Source: an uncultured Actinomycetota bacterium | Lineage (GTDB): Bacteria > Actinomycetota > Acidimicrobiia > Spongiisociales > UBA5794 | NCBI GenBank assembly: GCA_963808015.1 | Contig: CAWEEG010000030.1 | Span: 25 to 64,024, forward strand | DNA length: 64,000 nt | Direction: 5' to 3' | In this document: positions 9,150 to 53,729 of the stretch, in pieces | Layout of the letters: every line of letters starts with the position of its first letter | Numbering within the stretch: the stretch's first letter is position 1 | Notes under the pieces: generated by a model | Databases searched by the model: none | Seen by the model: only the letters and a program-made list of their open reading frames with translations | Told to the model about the DNA's origin: nothing | Made by a program: the position numbers and the translations under genes

Positions 9150-9792
9150 TGGCGGGTTGGTCGGTTCATTCGCGGAGACCTGGGTCATCCCTGACAACCG
9201 CGGTTTCCAGGCGGGCCGTTCTTGCTCGAAGCGTTCGATCTCCTCGGCATGTGCGAGGGTCAGGGCGACATGATCGAGGCCGTTGAGCAGCCGGTGCTTC
9301 ACCGCAGGATCGATGTCGAACGACGCTTCGAAGTCGCCCGACACGACCGTCTGCGCCGGGAGGTCGATCGTCACCTGGTTTGCCGGATCAGCGGCAATCG
9401 CAGTGAGTTCAGCTACCTCCTCGGCGCTGAGCGCGATCGGGAGCAACCCGACGTTGTACGAGTTGCCCCGGAAGATGTCGGCGAACGACGGAGCAATGAT
9501 TGCCCGGAATCCACGGTCCTCGAGCGCCCACGGGGCGTGCTCTCGAGACGATCCCGAACCGAAGTTCGGGCCGGAGACGAGCACAACGGCCTCTGAGTAC
9601 TCCGGTCGGTTGAGGATGAACTCCGGGGTCCAGTTCACCCTCGGCGTCCTGCGCCCAATCCCAGAAGAGGAACGGACCGAAGCCGGAGCGCTCAACTCGC
9701 TTGAGGAACTGCTTCGGGATGATCTGATCGGTGTCGATGTTGGCCCGGGGGAGTGGGGCCATCTGGCCGGAGATGACGGTGACGGGCTGCAT
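9150..9792 (-). CDS. leuD: 3-isopropylmalate dehydratase small subunit, frameshifted; 3' end uncertain
   Basis: [33 protein letters not shown]-terminus at ATG 9792..9790, then a shift to ...[21 protein letters not shown]... The ATG overlaps the leuC stop by 1 nt. No in-frame stop after the WKPR region, so the 3' end is obscured by a frameshift. Confidence 0.8.
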
Positions 9793-11199
9793 CAGGACCA
9801 CTCCCGGATGTCGACGAAGTGGCCTTCGATCGCTGCCGCGGCCGCCATAGCCGGGCTCACGAGATGGGTTCGACCGTCGCGGCCCTGGCGACCTTCGAAG
9901 TTGCGGTTCGATGTCGAGGCGCACCGTTCTCCCGGCTGAAGGACGTCCGGGTTCATCGCCAGGCACATCGAACACCCGGCGTCGCGCCATTCGAACCCCG
10001 CATCGATGAAGACCTGTCGAGCCCCTCTTCCTCGGCCTGGAGCTTCACCAGGCCGGAACCGGGAACCACCATCGCCCGGACGCCTTCGGCTACCTGCCTC
10101 CCCGCCACGACAGCGGAGGCTGCCCGCAGGTCTTCGATCCTGGCATTCGTGCACGAGCCGAGGAACACCACGTCGATGGTGATGTCGGTGATCGGGGTTC
10201 CGGCTTCCAGGTCCATGTAGACGAGCGCTCGTTCGGCTGCGTCACGGTCGAGCGGGTCGTCGAACGACGCAGGGTCGGGAACACTCGCTCCGACCGGTAC
10301 CGTTTGTGATGGGTTGGTGCCCCACGAAACGTAGGGCGTGAGGTCGGCAGCGTCGATGACGACCTCCGTGTCGAACACTGCGTCAGGGTCGGTCGAGAGC
10401 GTTCGCCAGTAGGCGAGCGCCTCATCCCACTCGGCACCGCTCGGGGCGAAGGGGCGACCCTTCAAGTAGGCGAAGGTTGTCTCGTCGGGAGCGACCAGTC
10501 CGGCGCGGGCACCGGCCTCGATCGACATGTTGCAGACGGTCATCCGACCCTCCATCGACATGCTCCTCGAACACCGAACCCCGGTACTCGACGACGTGCC
10601 CACCTCCGCCGTTGAATCCGATGCGGGCGATGATGCCGAGGATCACGTCCTTCGGCGTGACGCCCGGCCGGAAGATCTCCGTCGACGGTGATCGACATCG
10701 ACTTGGGTTTGCGCTGCGGCATCGTCTGTGTGGCGAGCACGTGCTCGACTTCGGAAGTTCCGATCCCGAACGCAAGCGCCCCGAAGGCGCCGTGGGTCGC
10801 CGTGTGGGAGTCGCCGCAGACGATGGTCGCGCCGGGCTGTGTGAGGCCTTGCTCCGGGCCGATCACATGGACGATGCCGGACCGCGGGTCGTTGATATCG
10901 AAGAGCGTCACACCGGTGCGCTCACAGTTCGCGATCAGCGTGTCGATCTGCTTCTTGGACAGCGGATCGAGGATGCCCAGCGCCCGATCTGCGGTCGGCA
11001 CACCGTGATCGATGGTCGCGAGAGTGAGGTCGGGCCGATGCACGGACCTTCCGGACATCTCCAGCGCTTCGAAGGCCTGGGGTGACGTGACTTCGTGAAC
11101 GAGGTGCAGGTCGACGAAGAGGAGGTCGGTGCCGTCGTCTTCCGTGCGGACGACGTGGTCGTCCCAGATCTTCTCGTAGAGGGTGCGGGGCTTGGTCAT
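9792..11199 (-). CDS. leuC: 3-isopropylmalate dehydratase large subunit, 2 frameshifts
   Basis: [15 protein letters not shown] start (ATG 11199..11197); aconitase-family motifs ([27 protein letters not shown]) in three consecutive minus-strand frames; ends ...DIREWS* at 9792. Confidence 0.85.
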
Positions 11200-11360
11200 G
11201 GTGCGTCGCAGGTTAGGGACGAGCGAGGAGTTGGCACACGACATCGATTGACTGGGTGGCACCAACGGCAACGCCCATTGCCTGGACCTGGCTCGATAGC
11301 CGACGCCCTCTGATGCTGGTGTCACCGCGCCGGGACCACTCCCCGGTACGCTGATCGCTG

Positions 11361-11909
11361 ATGCCGGTTGTTCTCGCCATTCTGCTCTCCGTCGTGCTCG
11401 GCGCCCCGTTCGGGGAGGCAGAGGCTCGTGCGCTCGAGGTCGACACCGGGATGACGATCGAGGTGTCGGTCGAACTGGACGGCGGACGATCAGCGGTGCT
11501 GGCCCGGGTGGTTGCGTTCGCCGGAGAACTGCCACCGGTCGCACTCGTCGACCAGGGCGATGGCCGATGGGTCGGCATCCTCCGGCTCTCGGGACGCGAA
11601 GATGTTCAGGTCGCGTTCGAAGCCATCGACGCCGATGGCTCGAGCGACATCTCCGAGCTTTCGACGCTGACGGAACTCGGTGTTGATCCGGCCGTGGTTT
11701 CCCCAACTCGGCCAACGATCCCGCCGGCGGAGGAGCCCGGTCCGAACTGGTGGCTCATCGGCGGGGCTGTGGCCGGGATCGCAGCACTCGTCCTATTGGT
11801 GGCGTGGGCGGTCGCGGGTACGACAGACAAGGGCTTGGGCGAACCGGACGAGAAGAACGGCGTCGGTGAGCCCGAACCCGACTCCGCACCCGGCGACGCT
11901 GGGGCTTAG
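11361..11909 (+). CDS. Secreted, membrane-anchored hypothetical protein (signal peptide, C-terminal TM helix, acidic tail)
   Basis: N-terminal hydrophobic leader; C-terminal [20 protein letters not shown] helix followed by a D/E/P-rich tail. Confidence 0.5.
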
Positions 11910-12798: not shown

Positions 12799-13250
12799 TT
12801 GGGAATGCCGGCGCTCGCCATCTGGTCGCCGGAGGACGAGGTTCTCGGCGCCGTCGCCCCTCTTGCGCTGGGCGCGGCCGCCGGCACGGCGCTCGTGGTT
12901 GATCTGGATCCCGACGGCCCGCAGTATCGCGGGGACGTCTCCCTGGCGAGCCTCGTCGTCGACGGCCCGGCCAAGGCCGACCTCTCACCTCAGCGACGTG
13001 GCGTTGCGGTCGTTCGTAACGGCGGTATTGATCCTCAGGATGCCGAGGCGGTTCTTCACGCCCTCGTTGATGGTTGGCCTGCAGTGGTGTTCCGACTCCC
13101 CGCGGGCCACATCGCCGACGGGAGCGCGATCCCGGTCCTGCCGCTGGTCCCCGGTTCGCTGTTCCGCCGATTCCCCGGACCGGCCGTCTATCAGCGTTCG
13201 GCGTGGAGGGTCGAGACCCCGTCGAATGCCCTTGTGCTGCCTCAGGCCCG
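12799..13250 (+). CDS. Tad-locus CpaE/TadZ-like protein with a degenerate P-loop (LALGAAAGTALVVDLDP); runs in-frame into tadA with no visible stop
   Basis: MinD/ParA-like N-terminal topology with the Walker A lysine lost. Position upstream of tadA is as in actinobacterial tad loci. The 3' end is not defined: low-complexity out-of-frame-looking segment at 13250-13340. Confidence 0.45.
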
Positions 13251-13341
13251 GTTCCGGGACCATCGGTGCCCTTCTCGCCGGTCGCGCCCCCCTTGCGGGA
13301 GACCGCTGGATCCGAGCTTGGCGACGAGTGTGGAGGAACGC

Positions 13342-14403
13342 ATGGGTGTGACCGATCGAATCGTCCGGCGCCTCCTCGAGTCCGACGTCCCGCTCGAACG
13401 AGGGGCGTTGACGGCCGCCGCTTCGGTGCTGATTCCCGAAGTGGCGCCACTTGCCGGCACGGATGAGATCACTGATGCAGTCGACGCTCTGGCAGGTCTT
13501 GGACCGGTAGAGCGCCTCCTGCGTGACCCCGAGATCACGGACGTGCTGGTGAACGGCCCCAAGGAGGTGTGGGTTGAGCGCCACGGCAGGCTCGAGCGGA
13601 GCGAGGTTGCCTTCGTCGACGACCGGGCGATTGTTGCCGCCGTCGAGCGAGTCATCGCTCCACTCGGGCTTCGAATCGACCGGGCCAGTCCAGCGGTTGA
13701 CGCCCGTCTCGCAGATGGGTCCCGGCTCCACGCCGTGATCCCTCCTGCATCCGTTGACGGCCCAATCGTCGCGGTACGCCGATTCTCCGAGGCGGTGACG
13801 GATCTCGAGGTCCTCGTTGAGCACGGCGGTATCTCAAGCAGCGGAGCCGAGCTACTGCGAACGGCGGTCTTGGACCGGTTGAACTTGCTGATCGCCGGCG
13901 GTACGGGAGCGGGAAAGACGACGCTGCTGAACGTGTTGTCGAAGGAGATCAACCCCTCCGAACGAACGGTGACGGTCGAGGACGCTGCCGAACTCCGGCT
14001 CGAGGGTCACGTCGTCCGTCTCGAAGCTCGCCCGCCCAACCCGGAAGGCGCGGGCGAGATCACCGTGCGGGCGCTGCTGCGGCACGCACTCCGTCTCCGG
14101 CCCGATCGGATTGTTGTTGGCGAGGTGCGCGGCCCTGAAGCTCTCGACATGATCCAGGCCATGAGCACAGGTCATGACGGATCGATGTCGACCATCCACG
14201 CGAACGGGCCCGAGGAGGCATTGTGGAGGCTCGAGAGTCTCGCAGCAACCGCCGACTCCGGGGCATCGATCGACACCCTCCGGCGGCAGATACTCTCGGC
14301 CGTCGATCGTGTCGTCTTCGTCACCCGCCGGCCGGAGGCACGTGTCGTCTCCTCGATCTGCGAAGTAGGCCCGGATGGGGTCGCGGAGGTCTACTCGTGT
14401 TGA
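13342..14403 (+). CDS. tadA: Tad pilus secretion ATPase TadA/CpaF
   Basis: Walker [17 protein letters not shown], Asp box, His box ([12 protein letters not shown]), [15 protein letters not shown]; intact 350-aa region. Confidence 0.9.
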
Positions 14404-16718: not shown

Positions 16719-17492
16719 TCAGCCCGCGACGTGAACGGTCACGACTCCTGAAGTTCTCGCCGGTGAATCGCCACGTGAGTAGGAGAGTGTCACCTCGAAC
16801 TTGTGAACGCCTGCTTCCAAGCCGGAGGCGTCCAGCAGGAATCGGGCGACGTCCGTTTCACCTTGATCGAGTTGGTTGTCGTGGTACAGGCTGGTCCAAT
16901 CGCGTTCGCCCGGGTACGCGATGGCGGCGCCGCTCGGTCCAGTCGCTGTCATCTCCACGTCGCCGATGGACGGCGCCATCCCGGTCCAATCCACTCCAAC
17001 CCAGGATGGCTCATCGGTGGGCACAGATCCGGCGTCGTCCGTCGAAATGGCTACATCGTCGCCGGTGTATTCGACGGTCGGAACAGTCACCTTGAAATCC
17101 TTGCTGACGTCTTTTTCGCCATCGTTCCATGTCGCAACGAGGTCGAGCTTGAAGTTCTTGGTCCCGTACGGGACATCCACGTGGATTGCGGTGAAGTCGA
17201 TCTCATCGCTTGAGAGCACATCGTTGAACATGAGGCTGGTGTGATCGCCCGTGTTGTCCGGGTATGAGATCTCGACACCGGGGGCCTTCGTTGTGGCAAC
17301 GACGCGGAATCCGGTGGCGTCCGCTGTGGAGCCCCTCCAGTTCACGACTACCCAGGCGGAACTGCCCTGGACGACGGTGGCGGTCTTCTGTGTATCGAGC
17401 TTGACCTTCGCCTCGTCCTTCGCCATGGCCGGGGCCGCCGCGCTCAGGAATGCCGCGGTGATGAGAACGAGGGTGAAGATGCGTCGTGTCAT
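16719..17492 (-). CDS. Secreted hypothetical protein (signal peptide AMA|KDE), beta-rich
   Basis: 257-aa intact ORF with a classical Sec signal; no catalytic motif recognised. Confidence 0.55.
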   Translation of the reverse strand: MTRRIFTLVLITAAFLSAAAPAMAKDEAKVKLDTQKTATVVQGSSAWVVVNWRGSTADATGFRVVATTKAPGVEISYPDNTGDHTSLMFNDVLSSDEIDFTAIHVDVPYGTKNFKLDLVATWNDGEKDVSKDFKVTVPTVEYTGDDVAISTDDAGSVPTDEPSWVGVDWTGMAPSIGDVEMTATGPSGAAIAYPGERDWTSLYHDNQLDQGETDVARFLLDASGLEAGVHKFEVTLSYSRGDSPARTSGVVTVHVAG

Positions 17493-18054: not shown

Positions 18055-19116
18055 ATGCAGGATCTCACAGAAGCCTATCGGCGGGGTGTTGAACCCTTGC
18101 TCGATGGCCTTCGCTCCGCGCTGCCGGATGTCCAGAACGGGAACGACGAAGCGATTGCCACAGCACGCGGACTCAGCCACCAACTCAAGGGTTCGGGAAC
18201 CAGCTTCGGTCACCCCGAGATCACGGCTCTCGCTGCAGTTGCGCTCGACACCACTGACTCTGACCTCGCTGAGGCGCTCGATCCTCTCATTGCCGCTCTT
18301 GAGGACGTCGTGGGCACCGGCCGGCCGCAGCAGCGGATCGTTGTCGTCGACGACGACCCACTGATTCAGATGATTGTCGCCAAGACGCTCGACAACGACC
18401 GTCGACAGTTTGTCATGGCTGGTTCCATTGAAGAGGCGCGAGCATCGATCGACGCGACGATCGACCTCGTGCTGTTGGATCTGCTTCTCCCAGACGGCGA
18501 CGGTCGGCAGTTGCTTGGACACGTCTTGGCGAATCCCGAGACAGCGCGTATTCCGGTTGTGATGCTCTCCGGTTCCGGGAGCGAGCCGGTTCGGCTGGCC
18601 GCGATGGATGCAGGAGCCACCGCATTCGTCGAGAAGCCGTTTCAGCCGCTGGCCTTGTCCGGCCTTGTGGACGAACTACTCGAGCCTCCCAAGAACACGG
18701 CGCCCGACCCGCAGGCACCTCTGTCGACGCCCGATGAGGACGCTGCGAAGGTCACCGTGCTTCTCGCCGAGGACGACGAATTGGTGGCGGCGTTGGTGTC
18801 CGACCGGCTTGCTCGCGACGGCTACACGATTCGACATGAGGTCGATGGTGAGAGCGCTCTTTTCGACGCGCTGCAATCACCACCAGATGTGGCGATTCTT
18901 GATGTGATGATGCCGAAGATGAACGGGTTCGAAGTGCTCGGGCGGCTCCGATCGTCTCCGCAGACGGCAGAGTTGCCAATCATCATGCTGACCGGCCGTG
19001 GCCGCGAAGAGGATGTGGTACGAGGGTTCGATCTCGGCGCCACCGACTACATCGTGAAGCCGTTCTCACCGGCCGAGCTCGCAGTTCGGGTGCGGCGACA
19101 CACCAGCGCGTCATGA
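18055..19116 (+). CDS. Phosphorelay protein: N-terminal Hpt domain plus two receiver (REC) domains
   Basis: Hpt motif HQLKGSGTSFG. REC1 (VVVDDDP...LLDLLLPDGDG...MLSGSG...EKPF). REC2 (LLAEDDE...AILDVMMPKMNGF...MLTGRG...VKPF). No DNA-binding output domain. Confidence 0.8.
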   Translation: MQDLTEAYRRGVEPLLDGLRSALPDVQNGNDEAIATARGLSHQLKGSGTSFGHPEITALAAVALDTTDSDLAEALDPLIAALEDVVGTGRPQQRIVVVDDDPLIQMIVAKTLDNDRRQFVMAGSIEEARASIDATIDLVLLDLLLPDGDGRQLLGHVLANPETARIPVVMLSGSGSEPVRLAAMDAGATAFVEKPFQPLALSGLVDELLEPPKNTAPDPQAPLSTPDEDAAKVTVLLAEDDELVAALVSDRLARDGYTIRHEVDGESALFDALQSPPDVAILDVMMPKMNGFEVLGRLRSSPQTAELPIIMLTGRGREEDVVRGFDLGATDYIVKPFSPAELAVRVRRHTSAS

Positions 19117-20135
19117 GCGGACTCGTCCTCGCGATCGCCGGGCTCGCTTTCATCAACTTGACATTCGCAGCCGTCGTCGTTCTGCTGCGGATTCGCAACG
19201 TCCGGCGCGTCGCGAGGATCGCCGAGCGACGCCGACGATGGTACCCACGAGTCATCGGGCTGATATCCGACGATTCCGATACCCAAGGCCTCAGTGAACT
19301 CGTTGCCCCGAGCGAGCAAGAGGACGTGGTCGAGATTTGCTGGGACGTCGCTCGGCGACTCCGCGGAAGCGATCGCTCTCGTATTCAACGGTTTGCCGCG
19401 CCTCTTCTCGACGTGACGACGCCCGACCTGGAAGCGAGGCGCCCAGAAACTCGAGCACGGGCGCTGCAGATCGTCAGTTGCCTCGGGGGACGCGTCTACG
19501 AGCCGGCCATCGTTGGGTTCCTGGATGATCCGTCGCCCCTGGTATCCGTGGTGGCTGCTCGCGCACTGTGCCAGCCAAATCGAGCGGAGTGGATTCGAGA
19601 GGTTCTCGATCGCCTCGTCCGGTATGAAGCCTGGAGCCCGGCCCTCACAGCGTCGATGCTCGCGACCGTCGGCACAGGGGCTGCTCCCGATATGAGACAG
19701 TATCTCGGTGATCGCCGGCGGCCCGCGTTTGCTCGAGCGGCCGTTGCCCGTTCTCTCACCCTCCTCAAGGATGTGGAATCTGCGGAGGTGGCTGCCGCCC
19801 AGATGACGAGCGGTGACCCGGAACTCATCACCGCTTGCCTTCATCTCCTCGCCGCGATCGGCTCTGAAGCGCAGGCTGATGCGGTGCGACCGCTCATCGA
19901 CGACGATCGATTCTTCGTCCGAGCGGCCGCCATCTCCGTACTCGGCAAACTCGGCACGCCGGAAGACGCACAGACAATCGTTGCCGCAATCGAACCGGAC
20001 TCCCCTTGGATCGCCATTCGCGCATCCCATGCTCTTGCCGACCTGCACGCCTCGAACGAGTTGGCCGCGCTCGTTGAAGCTGGTGGGTTGCCGGCCGAAG
20101 CTGCGATCGAGACGCTCTACGGGGGCGCCGCGTGA
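19113..20135 (+). CDS. Membrane-anchored HEAT/PBS-lyase-repeat protein
   Basis: N-terminal TM helix (LVLAIAGLAFINLTFAAVVVLL) followed by repeated helical xxVRxxAxxALGxLG modules. ATGA overlap with the upstream gene and overlap with the downstream GT2 indicate an operon. Confidence 0.6.
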   Translation: MSGLVLAIAGLAFINLTFAAVVVLLRIRNVRRVARIAERRRRWYPRVIGLISDDSDTQGLSELVAPSEQEDVVEICWDVARRLRGSDRSRIQRFAAPLLDVTTPDLEARRPETRARALQIVSCLGGRVYEPAIVGFLDDPSPLVSVVAARALCQPNRAEWIREVLDRLVRYEAWSPALTASMLATVGTGAAPDMRQYLGDRRRPAFARAAVARSLTLLKDVESAEVAAAQMTSGDPELITACLHLLAAIGSEAQADAVRPLIDDDRFFVRAAAISVLGKLGTPEDAQTIVAAIEPDSPWIAIRASHALADLHASNELAALVEAGGLPAEAAIETLYGGAA

Positions 20136-21691
20136 TTGACTTTCTCACAGCGTTCAACATCTTCATCCTCGGATACTTCGCAGTTCTCAACGGTACGTAT
20201 CTGACCCTGAGCCTCACAGCGTTCCGCAGCTTGAGGCGGTACCTCGACAGACTCGAGTCGCTTCAGATCGACGACCTCCTTTCATCGAGCGGCGGTCTGC
20301 CGATCTCGCTTGTGGTGCCGGCGTTCAATGAAGCAGCAACGATCGTTGCTTCTCTTCGATCACTGTTGACCCTCCAATACGCGGACTATGAGATTGTTGT
20401 TGTGAACGATGGATCGACTGATCGGACGCTTGCCGTTCTGCTCGACGCGTTCGACCTCGAACCAGTCGTGAGGGTGCCTACGAGCGACATTTCCTCGGCC
20501 GCGGTGCACGCGGTCTACCAGGGTGTCCAGCATCAGAACCTGGTCGTTGTCGACAAGGCGAACGGCGGGAAGGCCGATGCTCTCAACGTTGGCTTGAACT
20601 ACTCGCGAAGTGCGCTTTTCTGCGCAATGGATGCCGACACGATCCTGGAGCCCGATGCCCTTGCTCGTGTTGTGCGGCCGTTCTTGGAGGAGTCCTCGAC
20701 GGTTGCGGTCGGCGGCATCGTGCGGATCGCGAACGGTTGCACCATTGACGCCGGTGCTGTTGACGACGTCAGACTGCCGAACTCGATCCTGGTTCGATTC
20801 CAGGTTCTCGAGTATCTGCGGTCGTTCCTGTCGGCGCGGGTGGGTTGGAACACAATCGGTGCCACGCTCATCATCTCGGGAGCGTTCGGTGCCTTCCGGC
20901 GTTCCGTGGTGGCAGACGCCGGCGGTTTCGACACGAGCACCGTCGGCGAGGACATGGAACTCATCGTTCGACTCCACCGGCACTGTCGCGATCTTGGACG
21001 ACCGTATCGAATCGAATTCATCCCCGATCCCGTTGCTTGGACGGAAGCTCCCGAGAGTGTTCGTCAGCTCGGGCGGCAACGCGACCGCTGGCAGAGGGGT
21101 TTGGCACAGGTCATCAGCCGGCACCGTCGAATGGTCATGAATCCGAAGTACGGGGTCACAGGACTCGTTGCCCTTCCGTACTACGTCGTGTTTGAACTTC
21201 TTGGTCCGTTGGTCGAGTTGCTGGGTTACGCCGCATTTGCTGTGGCGCTCATCACCGGTCAGGCCTCAGTCGCCTACACCGTGGCGTTCCTTGCTGTGGC
21301 GGTGTTTCTCGGTTCGGCAATCTCGGTTTCCGCGGTCGCACTCGAGGAGATCTCATTCCGGAGGTACCGGCGTTTCGAGGACCTCCTGGCACTCCTCGGT
21401 ATCGCCCTCGTCGAGAACTTCGGTTACCGGCAGATGTCGACATGGTGGCGGTTGCGCGGCCTTGTGTCGGCGACGCGAAGCGATCTGCGGTGGGGGGCCA
21501 TGGAACGCCGAGGTCTCGAGCGAACCGAGGACAAGGCGCCGGATCTAAGAGGAGAGACGACATCTGCCGCGTGGCATGAGGGTTCAGCCCAGCCGGCGGA
21601 GTCGGAGAGCGGACTCGTCGATGCGGAACAGGAAACAGGTTGGATCCATATGCGAGGCGAGAGCGGCACTGATATTGGAATCTTGCCGTAG
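20132..21691 (+). CDS. Processive family-2 glycosyltransferase (PgaC/IcaA/NodC-like synthase)
   Basis: Two N-terminal TM helices; DXD (NDGSTD, MDADT); GKADALN; QRDRWQRG (QxxRW); C-terminal TM bundle and acidic tail. Confidence 0.85.
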   Translation: MIDFLTAFNIFILGYFAVLNGTYLTLSLTAFRSLRRYLDRLESLQIDDLLSSSGGLPISLVVPAFNEAATIVASLRSLLTLQYADYEIVVVNDGSTDRTLAVLLDAFDLEPVVRVPTSDISSAAVHAVYQGVQHQNLVVVDKANGGKADALNVGLNYSRSALFCAMDADTILEPDALARVVRPFLEESSTVAVGGIVRIANGCTIDAGAVDDVRLPNSILVRFQVLEYLRSFLSARVGWNTIGATLIISGAFGAFRRSVVADAGGFDTSTVGEDMELIVRLHRHCRDLGRPYRIEFIPDPVAWTEAPESVRQLGRQRDRWQRGLAQVISRHRRMVMNPKYGVTGLVALPYYVVFELLGPLVELLGYAAFAVALITGQASVAYTVAFLAVAVFLGSAISVSAVALEEISFRRYRRFEDLLALLGIALVENFGYRQMSTWWRLRGLVSATRSDLRWGAMERRGLERTEDKAPDLRGETTSAAWHEGSAQPAESESGLVDAEQETGWIHMRGESGTDIGILP

Positions 21692-21725
21692 AGGCATGTC
21701 CCGCTGAGGTCTGGCCATTCTCTGT

Positions 21726-22975
21726 CTATTCATCGTCCTCACTCAAGAGGCCGTCGTCGCCTAGATCGGCCAGGATCTCGTCGACGTCGGGAGTGAGTCT
21801 CACAACCGAGGCCTTACCTGCCCAACCGGGCGTGCCGGGGACGACGACGTTGTCGATCGACTCGGGATCGAGCGTGTGCACCGCGGCGCCGAGCTGGATG
21901 AGGTCGGTTGGTGTCAGACTCGTCCACGTGTAGTCGAGAAGCACCTTCACGATCTCCGGGGTGTCGACGATGTCGTTCATCTGAAGGAGTTGCAGTACGG
22001 CCAGCATGACCAAGCCCTGGTTGGCCGACCGGGTGAGGTCGCCGCCCGGAATCCCCTTGCGAGTTCTCGAGTATTCGAGTGCCCGCTGTGGAGAGAGTGT
22101 CTGTTCTCCGGCCGGCCATCCGTCCCACCACGCCTGGTTGGGGATCGCCCGCGGAAGGTCGATCGGGAGATAGCCGACCTGGTTCATCATGTCTTCGAAT
22201 CCTTCGAATCCAGTCACGACGTACCCCTCGACCGGCAGGCCCCAGGCTTCGACTACCTGGTCGACCATGACTTGCGGTCCGCGGCCCGACATCAGGGATG
22301 AGAACTTCATGGTGCCGTGCTTCGTCGAGACCCAACTGTCTCGCGGGAATCCGAGGATCGTGCCGGTCCCGTCAGAGGGGTTCGCCGCGAGGAGGTGAAT
22401 GCTGTCGGCGCGGTGTGTCTCCTGATTGGTTCCCACACGAGCGTCGGAGCCGATCACCATGACAAGGCGGGGCTCCTCGCCGTACCACGGAACGCCATTG
22501 GCCGGGTGCGCCCCGACGATCTGCCATCCGGTTCCCTCGTCTGCCGCGAGGAGCACGTCACCTCCCTCGGTCAGGACAACACCGACCTCTCCGCCTTCAA
22601 CCTCTGCTGTGGTGCCGGTGACTTCGAGATCATCGGTCGTCGCGATCGGGTGGTCCGCGAGGTGAGCTTCGAGTCCTTCCGGAATCTCAGGCGGCTTGTT
22701 GCGATCATCGATCTGCCACGAAAGGAGCGACGCCACGACGGCAAGGAGCTCGTCCGGGAGCTCGCCTTCGACCCGAACGCTGCATGACCGGTGCCGTTGT
22801 GGAGGTTGTGGAACTCGACGTGGTGGTCGAGCGGCTGTGTTGTGGTCGTGGTCGGCAGCGTCGTCACCGTCGTTTCGGCGACGCTCGGAGAGCATGACGC
22901 CGCGACGAGGCCGGTGACCACGAAGAGGCTCAGGGTGAGAAGGAGTCGTCGCACGGTCGAGGATCGTACGCCCAT
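21726..22975 (-). CDS. LytR-CpsA-Psr (LCP) family cell-wall glycopolymer ligase, 1 frameshift
   Basis: N-terminal TM anchor MGVRSSTVRRLLLTLSLFVVTGLVAA in frame 22571..22975, then the LCP core (GSDARVGTNQETHRADSIHLL...FPRDSWV) in the 21726.. frame. Confidence 0.75.
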
Positions 22976-23100
22976 TGTCGAATTGTGTGGTGTATCTCCC
23001 CACGTTGCGGGGTTTGGGCGCTCCCAGCCGGTTCGGCAATCGGGACGCTCCTCGACGAATCTATAATCCGGGACTCCAATTGCCGATCTTGGGAGTTTCT

Positions 23101-50909: not shown

Positions 50910-52865
50910 ATGCGGGGGCCCGAGATTGAGCCGAGGAGCAGCGTGAGCCGCACCGCACGAACCATCATGATCTATCTGGCCGTCATCTTCGTGGTGGTGA
51001 TGGCGGTCAACGTGTTCGTCAATCAATCGACGCAACCCCAAGAGCTCAGTCTCAACGAATTCAACGCCAAGCTCGCCGCCGGCGATATCGAGAATCCGGC
51101 GACGATCCGTGACCGTTCGAACGAGGTGACCGGGACTTATACCGACTCTTCCGGCGAGTCCGTCGAGTACATCATGAAGTATCCGGCCGAGTACTCGCCG
51201 ACGTTGACCGAAGACATTCTCAATGCAAACGTCGAAGCGGTTACCGACTCGCAGGAACCGTCGACTATTCCAGTGAGATCCTGAGCAATTTCTTCCCTAT
51301 GTGCTGCTCTTCGGAATCTTCATCTTCGTCATGCTGCAGCTCCAGGGCGGCGGGAACCGCGTCATGCAGTTCGGGAAGTCCAAGGCCAAACAGGTCACGA
51401 AGGACACCCCGAAGGTCACGTTCGATGATGTAGCCGGTGTTGACGAGGCGATCGAAGAACTCGACGAAATCAAGGAGTTCCTGCAGCAGCCGCAGAAGTT
51501 CCGAGCCATGGGGGCGAAGATCCCGAAGGGAGTGCTCCTCTACGGTCCTCCCGGCACCGGGAAGACTCTGCTTGCACGAGCGGTCGCAGGTGAAGCCGGT
51601 GTCCCGTTCTTCGCAATCTCAGGATCCGAGTTCGTAGAGATGTTCGTTGGCGTCGGAGCAAGCCGGGTTCGCGACCTCTTTGACCAGGCAAAGGCCAGCG
51701 CACCATCGATCGTGTTCATCGACGAGATCGATGCGGTCGGTCGCCATCGTGGCGCCGGTCTCGGCGGCGGGCATGACGAACGTGAGCAGACGCTCAACCA
51801 ATTGCTCGTCGAATTGGACGGTTTCGACGTCAAAGCCGGAGTGATCGTCATTGCTTCGACCAACCGACCGGACATCCTCGACCCTGCGTTGCTCCGCCCT
51901 GGCCGGTTCGACCGTCAGATCGTTGTCGATCGCCCCGACATCAAGGGTCGGGAGCAGATCCTCGAGGTGCATGCCAAGGGCAAGCCATACGACGACGACG
52001 TCAACATCAGCACTCTCGCACGCCAGACCCCCGGATTCACGGGCGCAGACCTCGCCAACCTCATCAACGAGTCGGCGCTGCTCGCAGCCAGGAGGGACAA
52101 GGCGAAGATCGGCATGTCCGAGCTCGAGGAGGCGATCGAGCGACGTCATCGCCGGCCCGGAGCGCAAGAGCCGCATCATGTCCGAGGAGGAGCGGAGGCT
52201 CACGGCCTACCACGAAGGAGGCCATGCCCTCGTCGGATACGCTCTCCCGAAGCTCGATCCGATTCACAAAGTCACGATCATTCCGCGCGGCCGTGCCGGC
52301 GGCTACACGATGGCGCTCCCGCTCGAAGACAAGCACTACGAGAAGCGCAGCGAACTCGTCGACCAACTGGCATATGCACTCGGCGGGCGGACGGCCGAGG
52401 AGATCGTGTTCGGAGACCCGTCGACCGGGGCATCGAACGACATCGAGAAGGCAACGAGCCTCGCCAGGAAGATGGTCATGGAATACGGCATGAGCGACCG
52501 TCTCGGGCCGCTCAAGTATGGGCAACCACAGGCCGAGGTCTTCCTGGGACGCGACTACGCGAAGAGCCAGGATCTGTCGAACGAGGTGGCTGCGGCCATC
52601 GACGACGAGGTCCGCAAGCTCATCACTCAGGCCCATGAGGAAGCGATGCAGATCATTGTGACGCATCGCGACGCTCTCGACCGGATCGCCGAGTATCTGC
52701 TTGAACACGAGACCGCAGACGCCGAAAGGGTGATCGAGATGTTCCACGACGTGCCGAAGTGGGAGCACTCGGACACAGGAGCACTCCGCATCAAGGGTCC
52801 AGAAGGTGCGGGCGACAACTGGTGGGATTGCCGCAGCCCAGACCGGCGGGCCCAGCGTCGGGTGA
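50910..52865 (+). CDS. ftsH: ATP-dependent zinc metalloprotease FtsH, 3 frameshifts
   Basis: N-terminal TM plus periplasmic region (frame 50910..51284); AAA module [22 protein letters not shown] and SRH (frame 51301..); HEGGH zinc site and C-terminal part (frame 51851..); Gly-rich tail and stop in a fourth frame at about 52863. Confidence 0.85.
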
Positions 52866-52866
52866 C

Positions 52867-53729
52867 TGTGACCATCAGCCCAATCACCTGGAACCTCGAG
52901 TCTCGTTCGCTCACGAACGCAGACCACACGCTTGTCATGGGAGTCGTGAACACGACACCCGACTCGTTCTCCGACGGCGGACAGTGGGCAGAACCACGCG
53001 CCGCGATCCGCCGAGGCTTCAAACTCTGGGACGACGGTGCCGACCTCGTCGACGTCGGCGGCGAATCCACACGACCTGGGGCGGAGCCGGTCAGCGTTGA
53101 GGAGGAGCTTGCACGCGTGGTGCCCGTTGTCGAAGCACTCGCATCACACGGGATCATCGTTTCGATCGACACGAGCAAGGTGGAAGTAGCAGCGGCCGCG
53201 GTGGCAGCCGGTGCTGAGATCGTCAACGACGTTACCGGCCTCACAGATCCCGACATGGCCAACCTCTGCGAAGAGACCGGTGTTGGCGTCGTCATCATGC
53301 ACATGCAAGGAGATCCCCGCTCGATGCAGGCCAACCCGACCTACGACAACGTTGTTGCCGACGTTGCAGCGGTTCCTTCGCGATCGCACGGCTGCGGCCA
53401 TCGAACGCGGAATCGAGGCCTCGCGGATCGTTGTTGATCCGGGAATCGGCTTCGGCAAGACGTTTGACCACAATCTCTCGTTGCTGAGGGGAATAGACGA
53501 GCTCGGGAACGGCCAGCCGGTTCTCGTCGGCACGTCGCGCAAGAGTTTCCTCGGATCAATCCTCGAGCAGGCCGGTCGGCCGTCTGAACCGGCCGATCGA
53601 GACACTGCGACTGCTGCAACGGTGGCCCTTGCGGTTGCCTCCGGAGCGGCAGTGGTGAGAGTCCACAACGCCGCCAGCGCCGTTGATGCTGCGAGAACAG
53701 CCGACGCTATCGTGCGAGTTCACGAGTGA
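52867..53729 (+). CDS. folP: Dihydropteroate synthase, 1 frameshift
   Basis: VMGVVNTTPDSFSDGG N-terminal signature; GTG 52867 is abutted by the ftsH stop at about 52863; C-terminal part in frame 53211..53729 (DPGIGFGKT). Confidence 0.8.

Follow-up and report, generated by a model that had tools for sequence, protein, structure and literature searches.

A receiver-HEAT-glycosyltransferase gene module as the putative core of a synthase-dependent exopolysaccharide system in an uncultured Acidimicrobiia bacterium

Organization of the locus

The window analyzed here is a stretch of 64,000 nucleotides of contig CAWEEG010000030.1 (assembly GCA_963808015.1) from an uncultured bacterium of the Acidimicrobiia (Actinomycetota). 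It carries three consecutive genes that encode a protein with an Hpt phosphotransfer domain and two receiver (REC) domains (gene A), a single-pass membrane protein built of HEAT repeats (gene B), and a glycosyltransferase of family 2 (GT2; gene C). On balance, we favor the view that a synthase-dependent exopolysaccharide (EPS) system is built around these genes, in which a processive GT2 has a HEAT-repeat co-subunit and is gated by a receiver. The composition of the triad, which an initial annotation had read from the DNA letters, is borne out by the open reading frames (ORFs), by Pfam matches, and by the key residues of each protein. The three genes overlap by 4 nt at both junctions. The annotation had described both overlaps as ATGA, and this is correct for genes A and B (19113-19116) but not for genes B and C, where the overlap reads GTGA (20132-20135) and the synthase starts with a GTG codon that matches the aligned start position of its homologues. 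Features of the locus and of related loci are listed in Table 1.

No REC domain outside gene A and no GGDEF domain anywhere was found in the 64-kb window, and a search of Rfam did not find a riboswitch for cyclic di-GMP (c-di-GMP) upstream of gene A. GC content at third codon positions (GC3) did not separate sense from antisense ORFs in the window, and homology was used instead.

Table 1. Coordinates of the module, its domains, its flanking genes, and selected genes of related loci. Positions are those of the window unless a related locus (L number) is given.
Feature	Location	Strand	Basis or remark
Gene A, Hpt-REC1-REC2 protein	18055..19116	+	ORF, 353 aa
Hpt domain of gene A	18064-18300, residues 4-82	+	Pfam, 26.6 bits (cut-off 24.6)
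REC1 domain of gene A	18328-18651, residues 92-199	+	Pfam Response_reg
REC2 domain of gene A	18757-19092, residues 235-346	+	Pfam Response_reg
Gene B, HEAT-repeat membrane protein	19113..20135	+	ORF, 340 aa
Gene C, GT2 synthase	20132..21691	+	ORF, 519 aa
Family-signature cytoplasmic tail of the synthase	21356..21517, residues 409-462	+	Invariant alignment columns
Secreted protein, 257 aa, signal peptide	16719..17492	-	No Pfam match; divergent from the module
Convergent LCP gene (LytR_cpsA_psr)	21726..22975	-	Pfam; tblastn against L006/L007
Secreted-protein homologue beside the module	L002 11829-12626	-	
Secreted-protein homologue beside the module	L007 3510-4328	-	
Secreted-protein homologue beside the module	L008 6652-7428	-	
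TPR-YaiO gene	L012 8347-9660		
TPR-YaiO gene	L045 8578-9894		
TPR-YaiO gene	L059 4788-5918		
TPR-YaiO gene	L086 6754-7890		

Domain architecture and predicted structure of the three proteins

The product of gene A is soluble and has no output domain. Its Hpt score only just exceeds the Pfam cut-off, and the pair of Response_reg matches totals 155 bits. All residues expected of a phosphorelay component are in place: the phosphorylatable histidine H42 within HQLKG (an HxxKG motif), and in each receiver an acidic pair, a phospho-acceptor aspartate, a serine or threonine, and a lysine (D99/D100, D142, S172, and K194 in REC1; D240/D241, D283, T313, and K335 in REC2). Both receivers are PhoB/OmpR-like according to NCBIfam and are joined by a linker of only 33 residues. 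Gene A holds no GG(D/E)EF cyclase domain, which sets its product apart from the PleD/WspR-type REC-GGDEF proteins. The NCBIfam model of EpsW, an output-less receiver discussed below, scores 98 on gene A, with a cut-off of 200.

Gene B (HEAT_2, 48 bits in Pfam) has a single hydrophobic segment at residues ~3-25 (19119-19187), and the 24 residues that follow hold ten arginines or lysines, a distribution from which the positive-inside rule predicts a cytoplasmic HEAT domain. The HEAT/alpha-solenoid spans residues ~57-336, and the AlphaFold2 model (mean predicted local distance difference test, pLDDT, of 91.6) shows a long helix at residues 2-52 followed by the solenoid. Its fold matches are only generic HEAT and armadillo scaffolds, such as alphaRep, importin, and PP2A-A type solenoids. 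Within the HEAT family, which counts 401 cluster representatives at E<=1e-30, nearly all of them 340-365 aa in length, we found generic HEAT-repeat conservation only and no conserved motif hinting at nucleotide binding. No close sequence relative of gene B or gene C was found in the PDB.

The product of gene C belongs to the Pfam families Glyco_tranf_2_3, Glycos_transf_2, and Glyco_trans_2_3. It has one N-terminal transmembrane (TM) helix, a GT-A domain at residues ~58-331, and C-terminal membrane helices at residues ~338-449. Its motifs are those of a processive GT2 (N92-D93, D149, D167-x-D169, the GED motif at E273-D274, and QRDRW at Q316-R-D-R-W320), and the QxxRW and GED motifs are invariant across the synthase family. 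The best Foldseek matches were hyaluronan synthases of Chlorella virus and Xenopus (TM-score ~0.55-0.6), BcsA, and yeast Chs1, all of them full-length membrane synthase-translocases. Furthermore, a profile of the synthase family aligns to residues 306-454 of BcsA, covering TED, QxxRW, and the TM helices that follow. Fold, profile, and motifs thus uphold the earlier assignment of gene C to the processive, membrane-integrated type of GT2.

Gene C did not fall within any of the curated families that were considered. The best NCBIfam match is PgaC_IcaA (TIGR03937), the synthases of poly-N-acetylglucosamine, but its score of 141.9 bits lies far under the cut-off of 422.3, identity to Escherichia coli PgaC is 28% and limited to the GT domain (residues 58-331), and no deacetylase family is conserved in the 85 related loci described below. 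The cellulose synthase family BcsA (the CelA model, TIGR03030) was rejected with a score of 40.7, against a cut-off of 699.1, and no PilZ match. NodC, which matches weakly, was rejected on its curated cut-off, and Glyco_transf_21 also matches gene C weakly. Pfam recognized none of the known types of c-di-GMP receptor in genes A, B, and C (PilZ, PelD-type GGDEF I-site, PgaCD interface, or MshEN) and no GIL domain in genes B and C, a result that leaves room for an unrecognized binding site.

At its C-terminal end the synthase carries a basic cytoplasmic tail with a family signature, FRRY ... GYRQ-x4-WR-x2-G-x10-12-WGxMxRxG(F/L), which recurs in different phyla, in ~75 of 83 loci overall. The tail is predicted to be flexible, with low pLDDT beyond residue 450. 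The conserved W-G...R near the C-terminus recalls a possible counterpart, the WGTR gating loop of hyaluronan synthases. The tail may serve as a gating loop, or else as a peptide on which the HEAT solenoid docks.

Conservation of the unit across phyla

A search for relatives, with one genome per species, returned more than 593 relatives of the synthase, and the best 80 loci were analyzed. Relatives of gene C number in the thousands, and identity is ~60% even between Actinomycetota and Gemmatimonadota. The best 80 loci include Acidimicrobiia, Rubrobacteraceae, Chloroflexota, Symbiobacteriaceae, and Clostridia. They also include Gemmatimonadota, Marinimicrobia, Rhodothermota/Balneolaceae, Salinibacter, Bacteroidota, Ignavibacteria, Sericytochromatia, Lentisphaeria, Acidobacteriota, Myxococcales, Xanthomonadales (Luteimonas), Halomonas, and Brevundimonas, and a second protein search added the Stutzerimonas stutzeri group, Lysobacter, and many Halomonadaceae.

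A profile made from the matches located a HEAT gene of ~340 aa directly upstream of the GT2 gene and on the same strand in ~78 of the 80 loci. The 4-nt overlap of the HEAT and GT2 genes was found again in distant lineages, and a search begun from a member of the HEAT family returned to the same cluster. The trio of receiver, HEAT protein, and GT2 is present in more than a dozen bacterial phyla. The co-occurrence that the initial annotation had proposed as a check of its triad therefore holds, with the HEAT-GT2 pair nearly universal and a gene ending in a receiver before the HEAT gene in 54 of 69 loci.

All-against-all clustering of ORFs, which covered 85 loci, revealed only one further recurrent family, a protein composed of tetratricopeptide repeats (TPR) and a YaiO-type barrel. 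No deacetylase, lyase, or hydrolase gene was conserved in the cluster across these loci.

Upstream signaling proteins and the decay of the GGDEF domain

Receiver genes precede the HEAT gene in nearly all loci. The genes upstream were classified in 69 loci with enough upstream sequence, a set to which the protein of the window does not itself belong. The typical upstream protein, as established with Pfam for ten proteins, is Hpt-REC-GGDEF-REC or REC-GGDEF-REC. In the 54 loci in which the gene directly before the HEAT gene ends in a receiver, this receiver is of the same subtype as REC2 of the window. Of the 69 loci, 9 retain an intact GG(D/E)EF motif, and another 20 have a degenerate GGDEF domain, in some cases with the RxxD I-site preserved; in 14 the proteins are of the Hpt/REC-REC type, in which no GGDEF domain was detected and to which the protein of the window conforms, and 23 have a single receiver only. 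The 3 remaining loci fit none of these classes. The intact GGEEF motif with its RxxD I-site occurs in Marinimicrobia, Lentisphaeria, Rubrobacteraceae, and Stutzerimonas, and the series of decaying GGDEF domains can be followed among the upstream proteins of loci L010, L052, L070-L074, L077, and others.

REC2 shares 43-61% identity with the C-terminal receivers of the upstream proteins of relatives and 35-39% with stand-alone receivers that adjoin the HEAT gene, against a background of 27-30% for other receivers of the same loci. Stand-alone receivers of ~125 aa adjoin the HEAT gene in Bacteroidota, Rhodothermota, Symbiobacteriaceae, and Proteobacteria. The receivers next to the HEAT gene are PhoB/OmpR-like and have no DNA-binding domain, and those of the single-receiver loci have neither a DNA-binding nor an enzymatic output. 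Judged by these identities, REC2 appears orthologous to the C-terminal receiver of the Hpt-REC-GGDEF-REC proteins, and gene A appears to encode a derivative of such a protein from which the GGDEF domain was deleted. Since the GG[DE]EF motif is intact in only 9 of 69 loci while 23 have a single receiver, it is the receiver and not the cyclase that emerges as the universal regulator. The comparison thus points to a universal core of a REC2-type receiver, a HEAT protein, and a GT2, to which the cyclase would be an accessory that repeatedly decayed. The suggestion that the system lies outside c-di-GMP signaling was too strong, given that the orthologue in relatives is an Hpt-REC-GGDEF-REC protein with an intact GGEEF motif in some lineages.

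Many relatives encode hybrid histidine kinases with PAS/GAF or CHASE3 domains within the same operons. For example, the operon of the Stutzerimonas stutzeri group (L086/L087, 1-10404) consists of eight genes, for a GAF-PAS kinase, a REC protein, an Hpt-REC-GGDEF protein, a CHASE3 hybrid kinase, a second REC protein, a TPR-YaiO protein, the HEAT protein, and the GT2, and its cyclase retains an intact RxxD...GGEEF. This group is culturable and a genetically tractable host.

Immediately downstream of the synthase, one of the Acidimicrobiia relatives (L002) has a further gene (9647-11701, plus strand) for a protein of 684 aa that ends in two receivers and whose N-terminal 560 aa have no assignment. 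The same locus also has a short Hpt-REC-REC protein and a stand-alone receiver.

An outer-membrane porin in diderm relatives

The TPR protein with a YaiO-type beta-barrel (PF19413, TIGR04390), an outer-membrane protein, occurs in 36 of 65 loci of diderm type and in none of 20 loci of monoderm type (Actinomycetota, Chloroflexota, and Firmicutes-like lineages). Its gene adjoins the synthase or lies between the receiver and HEAT genes, and its TPR part weakly resembles PgaA. Porins of the TPR-barrel kind are characteristic of synthase-dependent systems such as Pga, Bcs, Pel, alginate, and Nfr, and the presence of TPR-YaiO in diderm loci therefore marks the cluster as a synthase-dependent secretion system. 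No such porin was found in the window, nor would one be expected in an actinobacterial host.

At locus L085 (6986-9337) and in protein P0073 (720 aa), the GT2 and the YaiO barrel lie in one ORF or protein, which is either a real fusion or the result of a missed stop or frameshift. In E. coli K-12 (L089, 380069-384616), yaiO adjoins yaiP, which encodes a GT2, and yaiS, which encodes a deacetylase, and an IS2 element is inserted in yaiX; this region may be a cryptic synthase-type cluster. YaiP was considered as a close relative of gene C and rejected, the GT2 relationship being only distant.

Genes flanking the module

The convergent gene downstream of the synthase encodes a protein of the LytR-CpsA-Psr (LCP) type. 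The ATG at position 22975 starts a lipoprotein-type signal peptide, the frame of which differs from that of the LytR_cpsA_psr domain (ORF 21726..23039); the change of frame lies in a threonine-rich linker at ~22790-22840. The LCP homologues of L006 and L007, the closest relatives, hold signal peptide and domain in one frame. The LCP gene adjoins the module in 2 of 85 loci only, and these are the same two. Other genes of the window are also split between frames, namely ftsH (51301-53437, plus strand), with the AAA part in one frame and the M41 peptidase in another ORF that continues into Pterin_bind/folP, and the large subunit of an aconitase-family enzyme (9953-11715, minus strand), split in two overlapping ORFs. 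An assembly indel is therefore the probable cause of the frameshift in the LCP gene.

A Tad locus lies upstream of the module, with a T2SSE ATPase (12799-14403), T2SSF-like genes, and TadE. Tad genes adjoin the module in only one other locus, that of L007, the closest relative with upstream sequence. Both the LCP gene and the Tad locus are outside the conserved module. The view of the initial annotation that the LCP enzyme serves the module by attaching its polymer to the wall thus finds no echo in a gene that is frameshifted here and adjacent only in L006 and L007. As for its adhesion island, the Tad locus is truly upstream in the window, but the synteny extends to L007 only and is a local feature, not a part of the module.

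Homologues of the secreted protein encoded upstream of gene A adjoin the module in L002/L003, L007, and L008, at varying positions and in varying orientations. This protein may be a lineage-specific (actinobacterial) accessory or matrix protein.

Comparison with described systems

The module belongs to the known synthase-dependent class, the GT2 motifs of which it possesses and the diderm porin of which is found in its relatives. What sets it apart are the HEAT co-subunit, a phosphorylatable receiver with an optional cyclase as regulator, and the YaiO type of porin. With PgaABCD/IcaADBC it shares an inner-membrane GT2 of COG1215 type, a small membrane co-subunit encoded by an overlapping or adjacent gene, and a TPR-barrel porin in diderms. 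However, in place of the two-TM PgaD the partner here is a HEAT solenoid of 340 aa, a PgaB-type deacetylase is lacking, the porin has a YaiO-type barrel instead of that of PgaA, and a receiver domain takes part in regulation. With BcsA-BcsB it shares the processive core (D, DxD, (T/G)ED, QxxRW), the profile alignment through TED, QxxRW, and TM5-6, the fold, and a cytoplasmic regulatory element near the active site. Unlike that system, it has no PilZ domain, no BcsB, and fewer TM helices, and the regulator consists of a separate HEAT protein and a receiver. The class I hyaluronan synthases of Chlorella virus and Xenopus are the best structural matches, nearly over the whole chain, and are single-polypeptide synthase-translocases of similar size; identity is however 14-17%, and they need no partner protein and have no link to two-component signaling.

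Two other comparisons concern regulation. NfrB-DgcJ and the PleD/WspR-type cyclases are dedicated local sources of c-di-GMP, and the operons of relatives that pair a REC-GGDEF cyclase with a synthase and a TPR-barrel porin resemble them. In contrast, the protein of the window has no GGDEF domain, the motifs of most relatives are degenerate, and the synthase has neither MshEN nor PilZ. The best mechanistic analogue of REC2 is found in Myxococcus xanthus, where EpsW, a phosphorylated receiver without output, activates a polysaccharide enzyme, EpsZ (PMC12802240). The target of EpsW is however a phosphoglycosyl transferase of a Wzx/Wzy pathway, and no HEAT adaptor is involved.

A full-text literature search, with subscription-only papers outside its scope, found no published description of the module, and no NCBIfam equivalog was found for it. 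These results agree with the earlier statement that a HEAT or receiver partner is part of no described synthase machinery. Apparently, the REC-HEAT-GT2 system has so far not been described.

Proposed mechanism and alternative explanations

In the mechanism that we propose, the GT2 would be an inner-membrane processive synthase, with PgaC/IcaA as its nearest curated family, that polymerizes a nucleotide sugar and threads the growing chain through the membrane. The HEAT protein would be its obligate co-subunit, anchored by one TM helix that sets the cytoplasmic solenoid beside the catalytic domain. The solenoid would likely serve as docking platform for a PhoB/OmpR-type receiver devoid of a DNA-binding part, which in the window is REC2. 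Receivers of this type dimerize when phosphorylated. Once phosphorylated at D283, REC2 would switch the synthase on or off through contact with the solenoid or with the synthase itself, and the switch could act by way of a dimerized complex or of the invariant C-terminal WGxMxRxG tail. The Hpt domain (H42), REC1 (D142), and REC2, joined on one chain, could carry out the D1-H2-D2 part of a His-Asp-His-Asp relay, which would receive its input from a kinase whose gene lies elsewhere. The ancestral protein would have carried a GGDEF domain between its receivers, a domain that appears to have stayed active in some lineages, to have degenerated in many, and to have been deleted from that of the window.

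Direct control of the synthase by receiver phosphorylation is plausible from the sequences compared here. The receiver beside the HEAT gene is the most widely kept signaling part, which fits control through protein contact, and there is precedent in Myxococcus, where EpsW, a single receiver domain, turns on the priming enzyme EpsZ in direct contact once it is phosphorylated (PMC12802240). A more specific version can be put forward as a tentative proposal, which we hold to be possible rather than probable. According to this version, REC-HEAT-GT2, with TPR-YaiO in diderms, would be an unnamed family of synthase-dependent EPS systems switched by receiver phosphorylation and not by c-di-GMP, in which the phosphorylated receiver docks on the membrane-anchored HEAT solenoid and frees or positions the WGxMxRxG loop, and the family would record the loss of a cyclase from active through degenerate to deleted.

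Several observations weigh against a receiver-gated processive synthase. Gene content, conservation of the unit, the fold class of the synthase, and the porin of diderm relatives are established, but that a receiver binds the HEAT protein or the GT2 is something that we infer, and so are the polymer and the sense in which the receiver would regulate. The longer members of the HEAT family that were checked yielded no fusion of REC with HEAT or of HEAT with GT2, only an SH3_3 extension or over-long ORFs. No histidine kinase was found in the window, where HisKA was not seen among the ORFs scanned (not every ORF), and the cognate kinase may be encoded outside the 64 kb. The GGDEF domains of many relatives, some with RxxD I-sites, leave c-di-GMP possible as an effector. 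Finally, the AlphaFold2 model of gene C is only moderately confident (pLDDT 68), and the strongly hydrophobic TM segments seen in this protein number just ~3, in addition to amphipathic helices.

These observations bear on the alternatives to different degrees. If c-di-GMP from an unlinked cyclase bound the HEAT-GT2 complex, for example at the arginine-rich tail of the synthase or the juxtamembrane region of the HEAT protein, the Hpt-REC-REC protein would be a relic with no role beyond tethering or the buffering of phosphate. To our knowledge, all characterized synthase-dependent systems (cellulose, poly-N-acetylglucosamine, alginate, Pel, and the Nfr polymer) are switched on by c-di-GMP, which counts for this explanation, as do the Hpt-REC-GGDEF-REC architecture of the orthologous upstream proteins, the four lineages with intact GGEEF and I-site, and the basic, invariant tail. 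However, genes B and C have none of the receptor domains searched for with Pfam, the window has no detected GGDEF domain, and the receiver is kept where the GGDEF domain is degenerate (20/69) or absent (37/69). Moreover, both receivers of gene A retain all their phospho-acceptor residues, which argues against a dead relic. We therefore regard control by c-di-GMP as unlikely, although far from negligible. The receiver might instead be merely co-transcribed and work elsewhere, for example as a sink for phosphate or as a node in the relay of another pathway, with the HEAT-GT2 pair constitutive or under transcriptional control. The missing fusions and the inferred nature of the contact leave room for such an arrangement, and the signaling genes upstream of the HEAT gene do vary much in architecture. 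It is nevertheless improbable, since it would be difficult to account for the retention of one specific receiver subtype beside the HEAT gene in over 12 phyla, gene overlaps included, unless the proteins shared a function; furthermore, the receivers of single-receiver loci have no DNA-binding or enzymatic output with which to act.

The two other explanations concern the product. The few strongly hydrophobic segments, the weak NodC and Glyco_transf_21 matches, and the lack of any conserved deacetylase, hydrolase, or lyase gene in the cluster would suit a GT2 whose product is a short oligosaccharide, like that of NodC, or a glycosylated membrane lipid, with the HEAT protein as a membrane scaffold. 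We give this little credence in view of the invariant QxxRW and GED motifs, the fold matches to full-length translocating synthases, and the restriction of the TPR-barrel porin to diderm loci. Ligation of the polymer to the wall by the LCP enzyme, as part of a dedicated adhesion or biofilm island with the Tad genes, is suggested by the LCP, Tad, and secreted-protein genes that surround the module both here and in L007. It is however very improbable, with an LCP gene that is disrupted in frame here and adjacent in 2 of 85 loci, and Tad genes adjacent in one. LCP enzymes use polymers linked to undecaprenyl pyrophosphate, and we know of no synthase-type GT2 that makes such a product.

Implications

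If the receiver-gated mechanism holds true, a receiver and a HEAT co-subunit would constitute a second means, besides c-di-GMP, by which processive synthases are gated. The graded loss of the GGDEF domain would then offer a natural series for the replacement of a second-messenger input by direct phospho-control. The module would also imply a new matrix polymer for many environmental phyla and for the culturable genera Stutzerimonas, Halomonas, Lysobacter, Luteimonas, Salinibacter, and Brevundimonas, and its tractable carriers make the question directly testable.

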